From positions 448,001 to 512,000 of the forward strand of contig CAVRZA010000011.1 in the NCBI GenBank assembly GCA_963725665.1: a stretch of DNA of 64,000 nt. Reading direction: 5' to 3'. A model generated the notes under the pieces. That model was not told the origin of the DNA, did no database searches, and worked only from the letters and a program-made list of their open reading frames with translations. A program made the position numbers and the translations under genes. The DNA is from an uncultured Actinomycetes bacterium (lineage in GTDB: Bacteria; Actinomycetota; Thermoleophilia; UBA2241). Shown piece by piece: positions 3,927-11,521 of the stretch (within the stretch, counting starts at the first letter, position 1; each line of letters begins with the position of its first letter).

Positions 3927-5456
3927 TTGGGGACCGTTGTGAGATCGAGCCTCCGCTCCCGTCTCGCCCTGACGCATGCCGCGGTCGCGCTGGTGGCCAT
4001 CGTCGTCGTCGGCGTCACCGTCAACTTGGCCGTCTCACGCCGCTTCGACCAGTACGTGGCCGCGCAACAACGGTTGCGCGACCAAGCCGTGATCGAGCAG
4101 CTCGCGCAGACGTACGTGCCGGGGACGGGCTGGGACTCCCAGGCGATCTTCTCGGCCCAGCACCTGGCTGTGATGAACGACTTGGGCCTGCGCGTGTACG
4201 ACCCGTCGGGCAAGCTCCTGTTCGCCGTCGGCAGCGGCAACGGCATGATGGGCCAAGGGAGCCAGGGCGGCATGATGGGCCAGGGCGGCATGATGGGCCA
4301 GGGATCGAGTGCCCAGAGCGGGGCCGTAAGCGTCTACCGTCATCCGGTGGTGGTCAACGGGGCGACCGTGGCGCAGACCGAGGTCGTCCATCCTACCGGT
4401 GGCGTCGTGCCCCAGGATGCTGCCTACCGTCGCTCGCTCAACCTGTATCTCATCATCGCCGCTCTGATCGCGGGAGGCCTGGCGCTGGCGGTCAGCGTCC
4501 TCGTTTCGCGGCGAATCGCGCGCCCGGTGCTCGCTCTGACCGGCGCGGCTGCACAGCTCGAACGCGGCGACCTCGGCGTGCGCGTCCCGGCCGAGGGCGG
4601 CGACGAGGTCGCCGGTCTGGCTCACGCGTTCAACAGCATGGCGCAGGCGCTCTCGCGGCAGGAGGAGTGGCGGCGCACCATGACCGCCGACCTGGCTCAC
4701 GAGTTGCGCACGCCGCTGGCCACCATCCAGGCGAGGATCGAGGCGCTCGAGGACGGCGTGCTGCCGGCCACGCCCGAGAACCTCCGCGTGATCGGCGAGG
4801 AGGTCGAGCGGCTCGCGCGCCTGCTGGGCGAGCTCCGCAGCCTCAACGAAGTCGAGGCGGAGGGGTTCGTGCTGCGACGCGAGCCGCTCGACCTCGCCGA
4901 GGTAGCGCGCGACGCTGCGACGTCGGCCGACCCGGGCTTCGCGCGCAAGGGCGTGGAGCTGCGGGTCGCGGCGCAAGCGGTCGCGGTCGACGCCGACCGC
5001 GACCGCCTGCGCCAGGTGGTCGCCAACCTGCTCGACAACGCCCTGAAGTTCACGCCTGCGGGAGGCCACGTCGACCTGAGCGTCACGCCGGAGACTCCGC
5101 CGTCGCAGGGCCGGTCGGCGGTCGCGGGGGGCACGGTCGAACGGCGTGGCGACGGCGTCGCTGGGGGATACGCACTCCTCAGAGTGAGCGACGACGGTCC
5201 GGGCGTCGCGGCCGGCGATCTTCCGTACGTGTTCGAGCGCTTCTATCGTGCCGACGCGGCCAAGGGCACGCGCGGCGCCGGTCTCGGCCTCGCCATAGTC
5301 AAGCGGCTCGTCGACGCTCACGGCGGCACGGTCGAGGCCGCCGCCGGCGCCGCCGGCGGGGCCCTGTTCATCGTTCGCCTGCCGCTGCTCGCCGCGGCGG
5401 CGCCCGAACGGCTTGCCTCAGCGGTGGTGGGCTCCGAGGAGAGGACGGCAGGATGA
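3927..5456 (+). CDS. HAMP-domain sensor histidine kinase (BaeS-like)
   Basis: Two TM helices, HAMP, H-box AHELRTPL, N-box NLLDNALKF, G boxes DDGPG and GAGLGL. The exact start is uncertain. Confidence 0.92.
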   Translation: MGTVVRSSLRSRLALTHAAVALVAIVVVGVTVNLAVSRRFDQYVAAQQRLRDQAVIEQLAQTYVPGTGWDSQAIFSAQHLAVMNDLGLRVYDPSGKLLFAVGSGNGMMGQGSQGGMMGQGGMMGQGSSAQSGAVSVYRHPVVVNGATVAQTEVVHPTGGVVPQDAAYRRSLNLYLIIAALIAGGLALAVSVLVSRRIARPVLALTGAAAQLERGDLGVRVPAEGGDEVAGLAHAFNSMAQALSRQEEWRRTMTADLAHELRTPLATIQARIEALEDGVLPATPENLRVIGEEVERLARLLGELRSLNEVEAEGFVLRREPLDLAEVARDAATSADPGFARKGVELRVAAQAVAVDADRDRLRQVVANLLDNALKFTPAGGHVDLSVTPETPPSQGRSAVAGGTVERRGDGVAGGYALLRVSDDGPGVAAGDLPYVFERFYRADAAKGTRGAGLGLAIVKRLVDAHGGTVEAAAGAAGGALFIVRLPLLAAAAPERLASAVVGSEERTAG

Positions 5457-6418
5457 ACGACGCTCCGACGTGGACCGGCGTGCTGCACGCCGGCATCCAC
5501 GGCTTCTTGCGCTCCCCGGTCGTTCGTCCCGACACGGGCGAGCTTGCGGCCGCGAAGGCCACCCATGCCGTCTACGGCATCCCCTTCGACAGCACCACCC
5601 TCTACCGGACGGGGTCGATGCACGGGCCCAAGGCGGTGCGCGACGCCTCGGCGCAGTTCGTCTCCTACCACTACGACTACGACCTCGACCTGGCGGAGCA
5701 CATCCGGCTGGTCGATTGCGGCGACGCCGCCGCCGTGCCGGGCAACGCGGCGCGCACTCTCGCCCTCGCGCAGGTTGACCTCGAACAGATCCACGCGGCG
5801 GGCGCGATGCCGATCGTCCTCGGCGGCGAGCACACGGTGACCATCGCGGCCACGCGCGCCTTGGCGGCTCAGCGCCGCGGCGCGCTGGGTCTGGTCGTCT
5901 TCGACACGCACCTCGACACGGCCACCGACATCGGCGGCGAGGAGCTCACCTACTGCGCTCCCGTGTCGCGGACGCTCGACCTCGACGCCTTCGCGCCGGG
6001 CAACGCCACCATAGTCGGCGTGCACGGGCCGGCCAACCCGCGCGAGGAGCGCCGCTGGGCCGATGAGCACGGCGTGCGCGTGTTCTCCATCGCCGAGATC
6101 GAACGACGCGGCATCGTGGATGTCACGCGGGAGGCCATGGCGATCGCCTGGAAGGGCACGGGCGGCGTCTACGTCTCGATCGACATCGACTGCCTCGACG
6201 CCGCCTACAACCCCGGCGGTGCTCCGGAGCCGGGCGGGCTCACCAGCCGCGAGCTGTTCGCCGCCTTGCGCGAGGTGGCCGCCGCCGGCTACAGCGCCTT
6301 CGACGTCGTCGAGGTGGCGCCCCAGTACGACCCCGCCGGGATCACGGCGACCACGGCCTGCCGAGTGATCCTCGACCTGCTCGCCGCGGCGGTCGCAGGC
6401 CGCGCCGGCTCACTCTGA
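5453..6418 (+). CDS. Ureohydrolase (agmatinase/guanidino-hydrolase family)
   Basis: GIPFD, GPxAVR, GGEHT, DTHLD, SIDIDCLD, PEPGG and DVVEVAP motifs. ATGA overlap with the kinase stop. Confidence 0.88.
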   Translation: MNDAPTWTGVLHAGIHGFLRSPVVRPDTGELAAAKATHAVYGIPFDSTTLYRTGSMHGPKAVRDASAQFVSYHYDYDLDLAEHIRLVDCGDAAAVPGNAARTLALAQVDLEQIHAAGAMPIVLGGEHTVTIAATRALAAQRRGALGLVVFDTHLDTATDIGGEELTYCAPVSRTLDLDAFAPGNATIVGVHGPANPREERRWADEHGVRVFSIAEIERRGIVDVTREAMAIAWKGTGGVYVSIDIDCLDAAYNPGGAPEPGGLTSRELFAALREVAAAGYSAFDVVEVAPQYDPAGITATTACRVILDLLAAAVAGRAGSL

Positions 6419-6448
6419 TCGGCGGGTACAGCCGAGCACCTGGATGTG

Positions 6449-6466
6449 GTAGCATCAATATGCTAC
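6449..6466 (+). promoter_or_regulatory. Palindromic operator overlapping a -10-like hexamer of the toxin-antitoxin operon
   Basis: GTAGCAT-caat-ATGCTAC inverted repeat containing TAGCAT, just upstream of the GGAGG RBS (6481) of the antitoxin. Confidence 0.6.
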
Positions 6467-6489
6467 AGCCCTGCTTCACGGGAGGAACC

Positions 6490-6717
6490 ATGACTCGCGA
6501 ACTGAAGCTCCGCCAGGCCGGAGGCTCGATCAGCGCGACGCTACCCAAGGACATGGCCGAGCGGCTCCACCTCTCAGCCGGCGACACGGTGCTGGCTGTG
6601 GAGACCGAGCGCGGCATCCTGCTGACGCCCTACGACCCTGAGGTCGAGGAGGCGCTGGCCATCGCCAGCAGGGTCGCGGGCGCATACCGCAACGCCCTGC
6701 GCGAGCTTGCCAAGTAG
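6490..6717 (+). CDS. AbrB/MazE/SpoVT-family antitoxin (partner of Doc)
   Basis: KLRQAGGSISATLPKDMAERLHLSAGD AbrB fold and C-terminal YRNALRELAK typical of Doc-associated antidotes. GGAGG RBS. Confidence 0.88.
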   Translation: MTRELKLRQAGGSISATLPKDMAERLHLSAGDTVLAVETERGILLTPYDPEVEEALAIASRVAGAYRNALRELAK

Positions 6718-6777
6718 CCGGTGTCGGAGCAGACGATTCAATCTTGACCCCTTTGTGACGATTCAAAGTTGACCCCC

Positions 6778-7548
6778 CTACGTCGCCGGCGTCGTGACGA
6801 TGCCGGCCTTCTTCCTGTCCTTCAGGCGGTAGCTCTCGCCCTTGATGGTGATCGTGGTCGAGTGATGCAGCAGGCGATCGAGGATCGCGGTGGCGATCAC
6901 CGCGTCGCCGGAGAACACCTCGGCCCATTCGCCGTAGCTCTTGTTGGAGGTGAGGACGATGGAGCCGCGCTCGTAGCGGCGGCAGACGACCTCGAAGAAG
7001 AGCGCCGCCTGCTCGGCGTCCAGGGGCAAGAAGCCGACCTCGTCGACGATCAGCAGGCGCGGGTAGGTGAAGGCGGCCAGACGGCGCGTGAAGGTGCCCG
7101 CGCTGCGTGCCTCGGCCAGCGAGGCGACAGCTTGGCCGCCGTCGTGAACTTGACGGCGTAGCGGCGCTTGGCGGCCTCCAGGCCCAGGGCGATGGCGATG
7201 TGGCTCTTGCCCACGCCCGGCGGGCCCGAGGAGCACCACGTTCTGGGCGCGCTCGACGAAGGCGCAGCTCGCGAGCTCGGTCACCTGCTTGCGGTTGATC
7301 GAGGGCTGGAAGGCGAAGTCGAAGCCCTCGAGGGTCTTCTTGGCGGGGAAGCCCGCCAGACGCACGATGGTCTCTGCAGCGCGCCGGTCGGCGGCCCCGG
7401 CGCAGGCTGCCAGCAGCGCCTCGGTGAAGTCGGCGAACGACCACTCCTTGGCGGCCGCCTCCTCGGCGAAGGCGGGCAGGAGCGCCGGCAGGTCGGGCAG
7501 CTTCAGGCGCTCGGCGAGGTGGCAGATCCTCTCCTCGGCGAGGCTCAT
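6778..7548 (-). CDS. istB: IS21-family helper ATPase IstB (two compensating indels around Walker A)
   Basis: AGFPAKKTLEGFDF, Walker B LLIVDEVGFLP, SIVLTSNK, AILDRLLHH, GESYRLK. Walker A GVGKSH is read in a neighbouring frame (~7130-7220). Confidence 0.9.
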   Translation of the reverse strand: MSLAEERICHLAERLKLPDLPALLPAFAEEAAAKEWSFADFTEALLAACAGAADRRAAETIVRLAGFPAKKTLEGFDFAFQPSINRKQVTELASCAFVERAQNVVLLGPAGRGQEPHRHRPGPGGRQAPLRRQVHDGGQAVASLAEARSAGTFTRRLAAFTYPRLLIVDEVGFLPLDAEQAALFFEVVCRRYERGSIVLTSNKSYGEWAEVFSGDAVIATAILDRLLHHSTTITIKGESYRLKDRKKAGIVTTPAT

Positions 7549-7618
7549 CGGCAGGCCTCCTCGTAGACCGAGAGCGGCCGCTTGACGACGAGCGGCGCCT
7601 GCTCGAAGAGCGCGGGAG
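7545..7618 (-). pseudogene. istA: C-terminal remnant of IstA transposase
   Basis: ...PLVVKRPLSVYEEACR* resembles the IstA C-terminal VxxRxLxxY motif. Its stop overlaps the istB ATG (ATGA). Confidence 0.7.
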
Positions 7619-7619
7619 G

Positions 7620-8021
7620 GAGCCACGCTGGGTCGACCGCCTCGTCGTCGAGGCGGTGCAGTTCGACCTGATCCGCGAACACGGCGGCATGCCCGGGTTG
7701 GGCGACGAAAACGGCCTCGAGGCGGCTCTGGCACGGCCCCGGCAACGACGCGCCTACGAGCCTGAGGCCGATCTCGCTGAGCTGACCGCCGTGTACGGTC
7801 ACGGGTTGGCGGCAAGCCACCCGTTCCACGACGGAAACAAACGCATCGCGTTCGTGACCATGGCGGTCTTCCTTGGGTTGAACGGCTTCGAGGTCGCGGC
7901 GCCGGAGGCCGAGGTGGTCACGGTGATGCTGGCCCTGGCCGCCGGGGAGCTCGATGAGGATGGGCTTGCTGTCTGGCTCAGGTCGCGGATGATTGACGCG
8001 GCTGGTGGGGAGTCCGGCTAA
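7620..8021 (+). pseudogene. doc: Doc (death-on-curing, Fic-fold) toxin cut off from its start codon by the IS21 remnant
   Basis: EPRWVDRLVVEAVQFDLIREHGG N-terminus and HPFHDGNKR Fic/Doc motif. No start codon at 7620; an internal GTG lies at 7656. Confidence 0.8.
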
Positions 8022-8101
8022 CGACGGGGCTTTGAGCAGCGAGCGCTCACACCCGGTCTTGCTCAGGGCTTCTGCGAGTCTGCTCGAGCGCCTTGTCAGG
8101 C
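8016..8101 (-). other. attC recombination site (degenerate)
   Basis: Minus strand GCCTGAC-AAGGC-GCTCGAGCAGAC...GCTGCTCAAAGC-CCCGTC-GTTAGCC: R''/R' boxes with an imperfect palindrome, 86 bp. Confidence 0.7.
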
Positions 8102-8590
8102 GCGTCCAGAGCAGACTCTTGCGGCGACCAGACCATGCTGCAGTAGGCGAAGGGATCGCCGGATGGCGGCACCTTCGTGCCTGTGCCGGTGATCACGAAG
8201 CCCAGACTCCGATGAGCACCCCAGGGCGCGCACATTGGATTGACGCACGTTCAGGCAAATGGAGTCGCCAGGAAACGCCTGGTGGAACTGAGCGATGCCG
8301 AGTCGAATCGCCGCACTGCCGATGCCGTGCCCGAAATCGGAAGCGCTGGCGAGGAACACGCCGAGCACAGCTCTACCTTCCCCCGAGAGACGTTCAATCC
8401 AGACGGTCCCGACCTCGCGACCATCCTCGATCACGAGGAACCAGAAGAGACCAGAGCTAGGATCGTGGTGATCGGCAAGGTCGGCGATGGGACGCGTCCG
8501 GGACATGAACTCACTGCTGCCGATATCCGAGGCCCAGCGATCAATCGTCGCGAGGTCCTCAGGTGAAACCGGCTGAAGCGAGATGGACAT
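8047..8590 (-). CDS. GNAT-family N-acetyltransferase cassette gene (one extra base near 8215)
   Basis: FGHGIGSAAI acetyl-CoA motif and NVRQSNVRALGC. Removing one base restores YRSLGF, and the frame then runs into the attC (PDKALEQT). Confidence 0.75.
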
Positions 8591-8600
8591 CCTTGGAAAC

Positions 8601-8663
8601 CGCCAACGCCTGGCGCATGACCAGCGCCGCAAAGCGGCGTCTGGGTTCTTGCGCTTGTTGGGC
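8601..8663 (-). other. attC recombination site
   Basis: Minus strand GCCCAAC-AAGCG-CAAGAACCCAGACGCCGC-TTT-GCGGCGCTGGTCATGC-GCCAGGC-GTTGGCG, 63 bp, extrahelical A in CAG[A]C. Confidence 0.8.
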
Positions 8664-8684
8664 GGCTGCGCCGCGGCTTGCACG

Positions 8685-9041
8685 CTATCCCGCGACGTGT
8701 TGCACGCCGTGCCGCGACGCGAGCTCGAAGAAGCGCTGCGCCTCCGCGGCGTCGCCGATCGCCTCGTATGCGCCGCCGAGGCTCACGAGCAGCGAACCCA
8801 TGAACTCAGTCGAGCGGCAGTCGAGACGGGCGCGCTCGAGCGCGATGATGTGCCAGCGCAGAGCCTCGTCGGGATCCGGCTCGAGATGAGCGACGTAGTG
8901 CGCGGCGATCGCCGCGTCGTAGTCATCGGCACGGGCATCCCATGCTGCCAAGAACAGGGCGTGGGCATCGCCGATCCGACGCTCAAGCTCGGCCTGGGTG
9001 CCCTGCATGCAGAGCTGTGCGGTGCGGCTATCGAGATTCAC
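8685..9041 (-). CDS. Small TPR-like helical protein (cassette gene)
   Basis: LCMQG...LFLAAW...AAHYVAH...SLGGAYEAIGDAAEAQRFFELA helical-repeat pattern. The ORF fills the space between two attC sites. Confidence 0.7.
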   Translation of the reverse strand: MNLDSRTAQLCMQGTQAELERRIGDAHALFLAAWDARADDYDAAIAAHYVAHLEPDPDEALRWHIIALERARLDCRSTEFMGSLLVSLGGAYEAIGDAAEAQRFFELASRHGVQHVAG

Positions 9042-9078
9042 GCGCCAACGCCCCCCTCAGTCCGGCGACTACCATTCC

Positions 9079-9165
9079 GCCCAACGCTGGGCGCGTAACC
9101 TGCGAGCGCCGCAGCCCCGCTTTGCCGCGACGCTCTGGCGAGTCAGGTTGACGCGCTTGTTGGGC
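9079..9165 (-). other. attC recombination site (canonical)
   Basis: Minus strand GCCCAAC-AAGCG-CGT[C]AACCTG[A]C...GCAGGTTACG-CGCCCAGC-GTTGGGC: R''/R' complementary, L''/L' with both canonical extrahelical bases, 87 bp. Confidence 0.9.
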
Positions 9166-9195
9166 GCCGTTCGGTTCACGCGACCCACCTACGAC

Positions 9196-9708
9196 TCACC
9201 TCCCTGACGTCAGCATCCAAGGCGCGAAGAACTGGACAACGAACGCCACGATGAGCAGCCGAGACGCGGCTACGGCCGAGGCGAGGCGGCGGTCACTGCC
9301 AGCCGCCGCCCGCACCAAGGCGACGGCCGCGAGAGGATAGACGAGCGCAGCCGCGACCAGGACCGGGACGGCGAACTTGGGCATCAGCTCGGTGAGGCCG
9401 GTGCGGAACACCTGGCGCAGGATGACGAGTGCCCCGGCGACGAGCAGCGCGAGCCCGACGCCGCGCAGCAGGCGCGACACCCGCCGCATCGCGAACAGGC
9501 CGCACACGAGCAAAGCCACTGGTAGTGCGAAGAGCACCGCGATGCCAATGGCGTACTCCCACAGCGCCGTCTCCGACCCGGCAGCCCCGCCGGTGGGCTC
9601 TGCGGCCGCGACCGCTGCGGCGACGAGAGACGCCGCGGCCAACCCCGCAAGCGACGCCGCTACACGTCGCGGCCGGGAGCCGCCCTGACGAATCGCCCCG
9701 CTGCTCAT
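9196..9708 (-). CDS. Hypothetical multi-pass membrane protein (first cassette gene)
   Basis: Signal-like N-terminus plus about four hydrophobic helices, lying between the candidate attI and an attC. Start uncertain. Confidence 0.6.
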   Translation of the reverse strand: MSSGAIRQGGSRPRRVAASLAGLAAASLVAAAVAAAEPTGGAAGSETALWEYAIGIAVLFALPVALLVCGLFAMRRVSRLLRGVGLALLVAGALVILRQVFRTGLTELMPKFAVPVLVAAALVYPLAAVALVRAAAGSDRRLASAVAASRLLIVAFVVQFFAPWMLTSGR

Positions 9709-9757
9709 CCTGCCGTCCAACCGCGCTCCTTCGCCTAGCGGATGCGCTCGCCAGTGC

Positions 9758-9781
9758 GCCCAACAAGGATTAGACAGTCTG
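9758..9781 (-). other. Candidate attI site
   Basis: Minus strand CAGACTGTCTAATCCTT-GTTGGGC: a GTTRRRY core with no attC-type palindrome, complementary to R'' of the next attC (GCGCCCAAC). Confidence 0.55.
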
Positions 9782-9820
9782 CAGATGATGTTCGGCACAG
9801 ACTGTCCTTTTCTGCAGAAG

Positions 9821-9849
9821 ACCCTAGCACCAGCCTAGACGGGTGTCAT
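9821..9849 (-). promoter_or_regulatory. Candidate cassette promoter (Pc-like)
   Basis: Minus strand ATGACA-N17-TAGGGT with an extended TGn before the -10, pointing at the attI and cassettes. Confidence 0.55.
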
Positions 9850-9863
9850 GGGCAGTCTGTGAG

Positions 9864-9903
9864 AGACGGGCGGGGAAGGCCCTCCGGCCTTCCCCGCCCG
9901 TCT
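9864..9903 (-). terminator. Strong hairpin downstream of trpB2, insulating the cassette array
   Basis: Perfect 18-bp stem agacgggcggggaaggcc / ggccttccccgcccgtct with a 4-nt loop. Confidence 0.75.
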
Positions 9904-9996
9904 TCGTCCGGCGGCGAGCTGAACGAGCCGCCGCCCTGGGTCGTCTCGACTGCGCAACGGTCAGAGCGGCCGCTGCGCGCGCGGTCTGTCCGGCCC

Positions 9997-11355
9997 TTAC
10001 ACCTGCGGCACGTGCTCGAGCGCCTCCTTGATCGACGCGCCGGGGTGCTCGTAGTCCTCGAGACTGCCGTCGAGGTAGGACTCGTAGGCGCCGAGGTCGA
10101 GGAGGCCGTGCCCGGTCAGGTTGAAGAGGATGGTCTTGGCCTCGCCCTTGGCCGCCGCCTCCTTGGCCTCATCGACGGCCACCAGGATGGCGTGCGCCGA
10201 TTCCGGCGCCGGCACGATGCTCTCGGACTGTACGAAGAGCCGCGCCGCCTCGAAGACCCTGCTCTGAGGCACGGCGACCGCCTCCATCAGGCCAAGATGG
10301 TAGGCGTGGCTGATGAGCGGCGCCATGCCGTGGTAGCGCAGGCCGCCGGCGTGGATGCCGGCCGGCACGAAGTCGTGCCCCAACGTGTACATCTTGAGCA
10401 GCGGCGTCATCTGCGCCGTGTCGCCGAAGTCGTAGTCGAAGACGCCCTTCGTGAGCGACGGACAGGCCGTCGGCTCGACGCCAACGAAGCGCGTCTTGGT
10501 CTTGCCTGCGAGCTTCTCGCGCATGAAGGGAAAGGCGATGCCGGCGAAGCTCGAGCCGCCGCCGACGCAGCCGATGACCACGTCGGGGTAGGCGTCGGCG
10601 AGAGCGACCTGCTCGAGGGCCTCCTCGCCGATCACGGTCTGGTGCAGCAGCACGTGGTTCAACACGCTGCCGAGCGAGTACTTCGACCCCGGGTGCGTCA
10701 CGACGTCCTCGAGCGCCTCGGAGATGGCGATGCCGAGACTGCCGGCCGAGTCGGGGTGCTCCTCGAGGACCTTGCGACCGAACTCGGTGTGCTCGGTCGG
10801 GCTCGGGTAGATCTCGGCGCCGTAGAGCTGCATCATCACGCGGCGGTAGGGCTTCTGGGCGTAGCTCACCTTGACCATGTACACGGTGAGATCGATGCCG
10901 AAGATGTCGCAGGCCATCGCCAGGGCGCTGCCCCACTGGCCGGCGCCGGTCTCGGTGGCGATGCGCCCGACGCCGTCCTCCCTGTTGTAGTAGGCCTGCG
11001 CCACCGCGGTGTTCGACTTGTGCGAGCCCGACGGGCTCACGCCCTCGTACTTGTAGAAGATGCGCACGTTGTCGGGCAGGCCGAGCTTGCGCTCGAGGTG
11101 GGCGGCGCGGATCAGCGGCGTCGGTCTCCAGATGCCGTAGATGTCACGGACCTCGTCGGGGATGTCGATGAAGCGCTCCATCGACGCTTCCTGCATGATG
11201 AGGCCCATGGGGAATATCGGCGCCAGGTCGTCGGGGCCCGCCGGCTGCTTGGTCCCGGGGTGCAGCGGAGGCGCGGGCGCCTCGGGAAAGTCGGGCGCGA
11301 TGTTGTACCAGCGCCGGGGGATCCTCTCTTCGTCCAACGTGTACTTCTTCGTCAT
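9997..11355 (-). CDS. trpB: Tryptophan synthase beta chain, type 2 (TrpB2)
   Basis: [30 protein letters not shown] (PLP Lys), [39 protein letters not shown]. Confidence 0.95.
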
Positions 11356-11521
11356 GACGCACCTCCTCTCGGATCGGTCACTCTCGTCTGGTCTGGTCGT
11401 CTCTCGGTCGGGGCGCCGCAACCGCGGCATCGCGCTGTTGGCGGGCGAGGCATTGGGCTTGAGGTCCGGGACTGATAAGCGACGTCACGCGTCGCGTGAG
11501 GGGTGGTGAGGTATGGGCGCG

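Follow-up and report, generated by a model that had tools for sequence, protein, structure and literature searches.

An integron cassette array with an attI-type leader and no integrase gene in an uncultured Thermoleophilia actinobacterium

The stretch of 64,000 nucleotides analysed in this study (referred to as the window) covers positions 448,001 to 512,000 of contig CAVRZA010000011.1 in the assembly GCA_963725665.1. Between positions 9865 and 8016, on the minus strand, it contains a leader of about 108 bp that ends with GTTGGGC and is followed by three cassettes, each of which is closed by an attC-type site. The region constitutes a genuine array of integron cassettes in an under-described lineage; its leader appears to hold the attI site, and it lacks a gene for the integron integrase IntI. 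We consider it probable that the region represents an integron platform that has lost its integrase gene or never had one beside it. The host genome is designated G000 and the contig of the window C11; other C-numbers denote contigs of G000, G-numbers other genomes and L-numbers loci. The sequence strings quoted in a first-pass annotation of the window, which had called an integrase-less array on the basis of the letters alone, were all found on the minus strand where it had placed them. The array consists of the following parts:

9758..9865, minus strand: leader, comprising the attI region and a putative cassette promoter (Pc); near-copies occur in G000, and it is intI-adjacent in relatives
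9764-9758, minus strand: R box of the putative attI at the end of the leader, GTTGGGC, with the predicted crossover after G9764
9085..9763, minus strand: cassette 1, with the open reading frame (ORF) 9708-9196 for a predicted membrane protein of 170 aa, and attC1
9165-9079, minus strand: attC1, R'' GCCCAAC and R' GTTGGGC
8608..9084, minus strand: cassette 2, with the ORF 9041-8685 for a weakly TPR-like protein of 118 aa, and attC2
8663-8601, minus strand: attC2, R'' GCCCAAC and R' GTTGGCG
8023..8607, minus strand: cassette 3, with a GNAT acetyltransferase ORF starting at 8590 (PF13302, E 1e-5), and attC3
8101-8016, minus strand: attC3, R'' GCCTGAC and R' GTTAGCC

The attC sites of integrons are characterized by RYYYAAC and GTTRRRY ends and by the expected extrahelical (bulged) bases. 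The three sites of the window are clustered within 1.15 kb. Folded as single-stranded DNA, attC1 forms a hairpin of R box, unpaired spacer and L box, from which two single bases bulge out at a distance of 6 bp; the first-pass annotation had ascribed both canonical extrahelical bases to this site. Its bottom strand folds with −29.1 kcal/mol (z −2.48; 4 of 200 shuffles were as good) and its top strand with a z of −3.47 (0 of 200). The attC2 site gives a hairpin like that of attC1; the z of its bottom strand is −4.06, and none of 200 shuffles folded as well. The attC anatomy that had been claimed for all three sites is therefore confirmed, in fold and ends, for attC1 and attC2, which are canonical attC hairpins; attC3 is degenerate and shows this anatomy only in part.

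A covariance model, termed R1, was built from six seed sites of G000, namely the three sites in the window, two on C1 and one on C2, with an RNAalifold consensus of 24 pairs. Applied with the filters off to the whole 64-kb window, R1 scored attC1 with 97.8, attC3 with 77.7 and attC2 with 55.5 bits against 15.9 bits for the best of 58 other matches; since the three sites are themselves seeds, these scores demonstrate specificity and not independence. Non-seed sites in the C2 and C4 loci of G000 reached 24-35 bits against 16.9 bits for the next best match, and 41 non-seed sites were found at E <= 0.001 in 211 kb. The consensus over 47 sites, including these 41, comprises an R helix of 8 bp, a spacer and an L helix of 12 bp with bulges. 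Paired cells amount to 86.5% over the 47 aligned sites, compared with 25-33% after the partner columns had been shifted, and compensatory changes are seen in 18 of the 24 pairs; none of 500 shuffles reached the observed values. The attC sites of this set are 63-115 nt long, GC-rich and lineage-specific. An origin of the palindromes as common intergenic repeats or terminators with a chance resemblance to attC is hardly conceivable. This explanation can draw on the fold of attC3, which is no better than those of its shuffles, and on the 34 candidates per strand that a naive RYYYAAC...GTTRRRY scan returns in the window. It is contradicted by the covariation, by the window background of at most 15.9 bits, by the clustering of R1 matches downstream of the IntI genes of relatives and by the insertion footprint described in the next paragraph. 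As a detector the naive scan was discarded because it is too noisy; of the three sites, it recovered only attC1. A scan of positions 7400-10100 against Rfam, in which the attC family is absent, gave only sub-threshold hairpin matches. The Rfam candidate "Chloroflexi-1" at 9853-9930 (30 bits, cut-off 80) was rejected, as it is the terminator hairpin of the upstream trpB2 gene.

It was claimed in the first-pass annotation that the starts of cassettes 1 and 2 are each complementary to the R'' of their own attC. Cassette 1 starts with GTTGGGCGC and its R'' reads GCGCCCAAC; cassette 2 starts with GTTGGGCGG and its R'' reads CCGCCCAAC. This footprint was assessed in 32 cassettes with a detected upstream neighbour by comparing the five R'' bases beyond AAC with the upstream R' half, which is the cassette's own start, or with the downstream R' half. 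R'' is perfectly complementary (5/5) to the own cassette start in 21 of the 32 cassettes and to the downstream half-site in 2. The own-start score is higher in 24 cassettes, tied in 4 and lower in 4, and the all-against-all mean is 2.8/5. Own start and downstream half-site can be told apart in cassette 1 only at the sixth base; in cassette 2 the complementarity is 5/5 for the own start and 3/5 for the downstream half-site. The claim is thus borne out for cassettes 1 and 2 and across the set, and it does not extend to cassette 3. An IntI-type tyrosine recombinase with its cut between G and TT would have inserted the three cassettes, each in circular form.

IntI was searched for with TIGR02249 (curated cut-off 265 bits) in 101 genomes including G000, of which 60 are relatives from the same family. 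IntI above the cut-off is encoded in 33 of the 101 genomes, that is, in 32 of the 60 same-family genomes and in one genome from another family of the class. The scores lie between 415 and 489 bits in 31 of the 33 cases; the other two genomes exceed the cut-off with split or partial matches, G056 with 285 bits and G020 with a sum of 335.6 bits. The IntI of G039 has a TIGR02249 score of 472 bits, and its alignment with IntI4 in PDB entry 2a3v runs from end to end (309/315 matched residues, E 9e-91) and includes the IntI-specific insertion. The recombinases of the relatives are true IntI. Arrays of R1 sites are located directly downstream of IntI, all on the IntI strand, in G012 (12 sites), G048 (8), G019 (6) and G021 (4). 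The same site family thus forms arrays beside bona fide IntI genes, in agreement with the earlier view that the window contains a genuine cassette platform. An even sample of the phylum comprised 401 genomes, and IntI was detected in 23 of them; if the unpublished genomes G177 and G238 are set aside, the figure is 21 of 399. IntI is concentrated in a few families, such as f17 (6/10) and f19 (7/21).

The leader links the array of the window to these complete integrons. It contains the following elements in addition to the R box:

9860-9851, minus strand: box 1, ACAGACTGCC
9829-9821, minus strand: TGn followed by TAGGGT, an extended −10-like element
9819-9810, minus strand: palindrome TTCTGCAGAA
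9806-9797, minus strand: inverted box 2
9781-9772, minus strand: box 3

In at least seven relatives with a full-length IntI match (G021, G039, G048, G012, G052, G030 and G036), a homologue of the leader follows the 3′ end of intI immediately and on the same strand; in G007 and G055 it adjoins a partial match and a fragment of IntI, respectively. Because of this homology to the region directly 3′ of intI, the leader is assigned as the attI region of the array. The GTT of the leader together with the next five bases was compared with the R'' of the first cassette in 11 platforms. The complementarity is 5/5 in six of them, including C11 and C2 of G000, and 4, 4, 4, 3 and 3 in the rest. For C4 of G000 a later site was scored (4/5); the own site of its GNAT cassette, undetected by R1 and read by eye, gives 5/5. 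In 11 aligned leaders the positions T46, G47, A50 and T54, corresponding to window positions 9829-9821, are invariant and T49 is nearly so, and the element TGnTAnnnT is kept in 10 of the 11. The arrangement T-G-n-(T)-A-n-n-n-T at 9829-9821 is presumably of the extended −10 type. It is plausible but unproven that this conserved element is the Pc that the first-pass annotation had placed here.

The locus is variable among related genomes. The block of approximately 5457-9885 is absent between trpB2 and the downstream genes in the metagenome-assembled genomes (MAGs) L031 and L033, whose TrpB2 proteins are 79% and 71% identical to that of the window, and synteny is kept on both sides. Since it is missing at the conserved trpB2 site in both, the array block is an insertion. 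Further evidence was obtained from metagenome contigs of at least 90% identity from four public runs (X1, X2, X3 and X7). These contigs hold the GNAT cassette, the leader and a doc cassette, described below, in other contexts. They break into unlike sequence at 9762, the predicted attI crossover (X3, X7), at 8604/8605/8601 in the R' box of attC2 (X3, X7), at 8023/8013 in the R' box of attC3 (X2, X3) and at the left edge of the leader, 9855-9865; an X2 contig matches positions 7944-8023 and then continues into unlike sequence. The contig breaks fall at the predicted points between G and TT. The break at 9762, the leader homology and the 5/5 complementarity of the first cassette all speak for the attI call of the first-pass annotation, and past recombination at this site would account for them. 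No excision joints were seen in the contigs of the four runs, and contigs cannot show their absence. A sequencing-run index revealed no run with more than 0.21 of the sampled words.

No IntI was found in the G000 assembly, where the best TIGR02249 match scores 85.9 bits against the cut-off of 265. A tblastn search of G000 with the IntI proteins of five relatives returned Xer-like genes only and no intI remnant. The lack of an integrase noted in the first-pass annotation therefore applies to the whole assembly, which is 97.5% complete. Because no IntI is encoded in G000, the array would now be static in this genome unless an integrase is supplied from elsewhere. Alternatively, G000 might encode IntI in an assembly gap or in an unbinned contig, which would make the array an active satellite platform with an integrase acting in trans. 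The assembly consists of 12 contigs, and repeats such as attC often break assemblies; attC1, attC2 and the R box of attI are intact; and G021, G048, G012 and G039 each pair one IntI-linked leader with 2-5 leaders elsewhere. We nevertheless regard a hidden integrase as unlikely. No partial intI occurs at contig ends or elsewhere in G000, and loss of intI is common in the family, because 28 of the 60 same-family genomes have no IntI above the cut-off and several contain broken copies (G013, G033, G056, G060). Loss of the integrase, rather than its non-assembly, is thus the more probable history of G000.

The leader is not confined to the window. Near-copies are located at C2:226913-227016 and on C4, the upstream genes of the three copies are unrelated, and the leader core in G000 is found only at the three array heads. 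The other arrays and attC sites of G000 are the following:

C4:339823-342930: array with leader, GNAT paralogue, RelB/YoeB-like pair (342358-342860) and three or more additional attC-type sites
C2:227017-228065: array with leader and two cassettes
C1:72940-73676 and C1:545231-545325: leaderless attC pairs

A distal end common to the four G000 arrays, which could mark a larger mobile element, was looked for and not found; what they have in common is limited to the leader, the attC sites and the GNAT gene. The leader copy of C4 is split by a single-copy IS110-family element with a DEDD transposase (C4:338290-339747; approximately 7290-8747 of L011). The insertion took place between ...GGTGCT and AGGGTC..., within the putative extended −10 element, and CT is present on either side of the junction. 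The possibility that the leader is the end of an IS110-family element of the IS1111-attC-like type was rejected, since the C4 element is single-copy and lies inside the leader, and the leaders of C11 and C2 are uninterrupted.

A search with a sequence model of the leader was performed in 89 genomes of the family, with 39 candidates scored per genome. Matches were obtained in 59 of the 89 genomes, and many of these have more than one; there are 17 in G024, 15 in G482 and 4 in G000. The orphan leaders of G021, G048, G049, G005 and G000 are each followed by at least two co-oriented attC sites. Orphan leaders retain 3′ remnants of intI that range from more than 100 nt down to none. Because these remnants are of very different lengths, the pattern favours repeated deletion of intI with the promoter and attI kept; copying of the leader as a module is the alternative that the sequences would also allow. 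In G024 the leaders precede genes, mostly without attC sites after them, and some have no terminal GTT; they look like a promoter module that outlived its recombination sites. Some G024 leaders are arranged in tandem, about 1 kb apart, directly before genes (for example, L112 4316-5457; also L110, L111 and L113-L116).

Such copies raise the question of whether the leader could be a mobile promoter or 5′-leader module of another, undescribed cassette system that came to lie beside integron sites only secondarily and is not attI. Its wide and multi-copy occurrence and the G024 copies would fit this explanation, which we consider quite improbable. The leader ends exactly at GTT, and in more than half of the platforms compared the bases that follow are fully complementary to the R'' of the first cassette; the metagenome contigs break at its end; its canonical position is beside intI in at least seven genomes; and its core in G000 is confined to array heads. 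A more speculative reading, for which we see some but limited likelihood, is that of a distributed integron. One IntI, or none, would serve several dispersed satellites of promoter and attI, each capturing cassettes, the Pc-attI module of about 110 bp would have been copied by an unknown route, and G000 would represent three loaded satellites after the loss of the integrase.

The cassette 1 protein belongs to no family, with only a sub-threshold match to DUF998 in Pfam and no match in NCBIfam, and the cassette 2 protein has a weak match to Pfam TPR_12 (E 2e-4, under the cut-off). The GNAT frame of cassette 3 is split by one extra base at about 8214; read through, it would end at 8047 within attC3. 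The base at 8214 is missing in one contig per run in all four metagenome runs, including an X1 contig that is otherwise identical. The GNAT paralogue that forms the first cassette of the C4 array is about 51% identical (tblastx) and aligns across both frames. Because of these contigs and of this paralogue, the extra base is regarded as an assembly error or a strain variant, probably the former, and not as a sign of cassette decay.

The regions on either side of the array contain the following features:

9997-11430, minus strand: gene for a TrpB2-like PALP enzyme, upstream of the leader (Pfam PALP, E 4.5e-44)
9899-9868, minus strand: GC-rich terminator hairpin of trpB2, which ends the TrpB2-like gene
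6460..8021, plus strand: region read as a decayed fourth cassette in reverse orientation, with a doc-partner antitoxin and a Doc toxin, interrupted by an IS21-family remnant
6460-6717, plus strand: doc-partner antitoxin (TIGR02609 doc_partner, 54.2 bits; cut-off 55.9)
7656-8021, plus strand: Doc toxin without about 14 N-terminal residues (TIGR01550 DOC_P1, 64.9 bits; profile positions 15-121 of 122)
6778-7548, minus strand: IS21-family remnant with IstB only and no IstA partner, between the antitoxin gene and the 5′-truncated doc (IstB_IS21, E 1.6e-66)

We read the doc toxin-antitoxin block as a decayed cassette in reverse orientation. The stop codon of doc is the complement of TTA in the R' box of attC3. 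An arginase-family gene at window positions 5453-6418 (plus strand) overlaps the stop codon of a histidine kinase gene; it lies within the block that is missing from L031 and L033.

Several observations weigh against the interpretation of the region as an integron platform without its integrase, or against parts of it. The attC3 site forms no R''/R' hairpin; the z values of −1.37 and −0.66 go with 19 and 47 shuffles out of 200 that fold equally well. Cassette 3 also fails the own-start comparison (2/5 versus 4/5 for the downstream half-site). An X3 contig carries the GNAT cassette behind a different attC and contains, relative to the window, an additional base immediately behind the GTT of R', and this junction gives the reading that the R'' of cassette 3 itself predicts; the result for cassette 3 may therefore reflect a one-base difference of the window at this junction. 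No attC closes the fourth cassette, and R1 has no match below position 8012 in the window with the filters off. The model R1 was seeded from G000 itself, and the alignment used for the pair counts had been fitted to R1, which favours the structure. A scan for promoters with the E. coli-type sigma-70 consensus found 0 sites. The metagenome breakpoints come from single short contigs and are suggestive rather than conclusive, and an intI gene could be situated in a gap between the contigs of the assembly. Copies of the leader far outnumber the IntI genes in the family, with up to 17 in G024, a genome without IntI and with few attC matches; because of these numbers, the leader may have a role beyond attI.

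The array can be compared with several known systems. CALIN elements are clusters of attC sites lacking an integron-integrase that are identified by their attC sites alone, according to the accessible text of two studies (PMC4889954; 10.1101/2022.02.28.482270). Like these, the array has no IntI in its vicinity or elsewhere in the genome, and its promoterless cassettes of one gene each come with two or more attC sites that point the same way over a few kb. Unlike them, it has retained attI together with a promoter-like leader at its head; G000 contains three heads of this kind. The available part of a permafrost MAG study mentions chromosomal integrons of the "inverted integrase" layout, in which intI and the cassettes are on one strand (PMC13323075). 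The integrons of the relatives resemble these, since all their attC sites are on the strand of intI and attI, and attI is found immediately 3′ of the stop codon of intI. The window differs from them in its Thermoleophilia host and in the absence of intI. The IntI of G039 aligns with VchIntIA (IntI4) of the Vibrio cholerae superintegron; in contrast to that system, no IntI is encoded in G000, and the attC sites belong to the lineage-specific type described above. Loot et al. are said to have found in 2024 that cassettes are inserted at genomic attG sites. The array is similar to such insertions in that its cassettes lie outside a complete integron; it is unlike them in that the first cassette adjoins an attI-type leader and not a random genomic site.

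We propose that the array belongs to a lineage-specific integron family of uncultured Thermoleophilia, the complete members of which have the "inverted integrase" layout. The leader would supply both the attI recombination site and a probable cassette promoter of the extended −10 type, and the decayed doc toxin-antitoxin cassette would follow the three cassettes. As the first-pass annotation had presumed, the host is an actinobacterium. It is placed in an uncultured family of Thermoleophilia on the basis of the closest TrpB2 matches and of synteny, and its habitat is soil or sediment. The closest TrpB2 matches are from Thermoleophilia MAGs (81, 74 and 71%) and from a MAG designated "uncultured Actinomycetes" (79%), followed by Chloroflexota with at most 67%. 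Two of these MAGs share the gene order with G000 over a stretch of several genes, and the contig that bears the array is 671 kb long.

Surveys of complete RefSeq genomes reported no complete integron in Actinobacteria, as far as the accessible part of a preprint goes (Neron et al. 2022, 10.1101/2022.02.28.482270), and the available text of the 2026 permafrost MAG study speaks of a "virtual absence" of integrons in Actinomycetota (PMC13323075). No description of the present elements was found in the literature searched for integrons in Thermoleophilia, Actinomycetota or Actinobacteriota; the search did not extend to subscription journals and supplements. The earlier statement that integrons are barely described in this lineage is consequently valid for the literature searched and should not be taken as a statement about the genomes, as the family is rich in IntI (32/60). 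The novelty lies in what has been described and not in rarity within the family. If this interpretation is true, the supposed incompatibility of integrons with Gram-positive, high-GC hosts would be a sampling artefact of cultured genomes, and the lineage-specific attC and attI sites would provide a system in which to test integron recombination in Actinobacteria.

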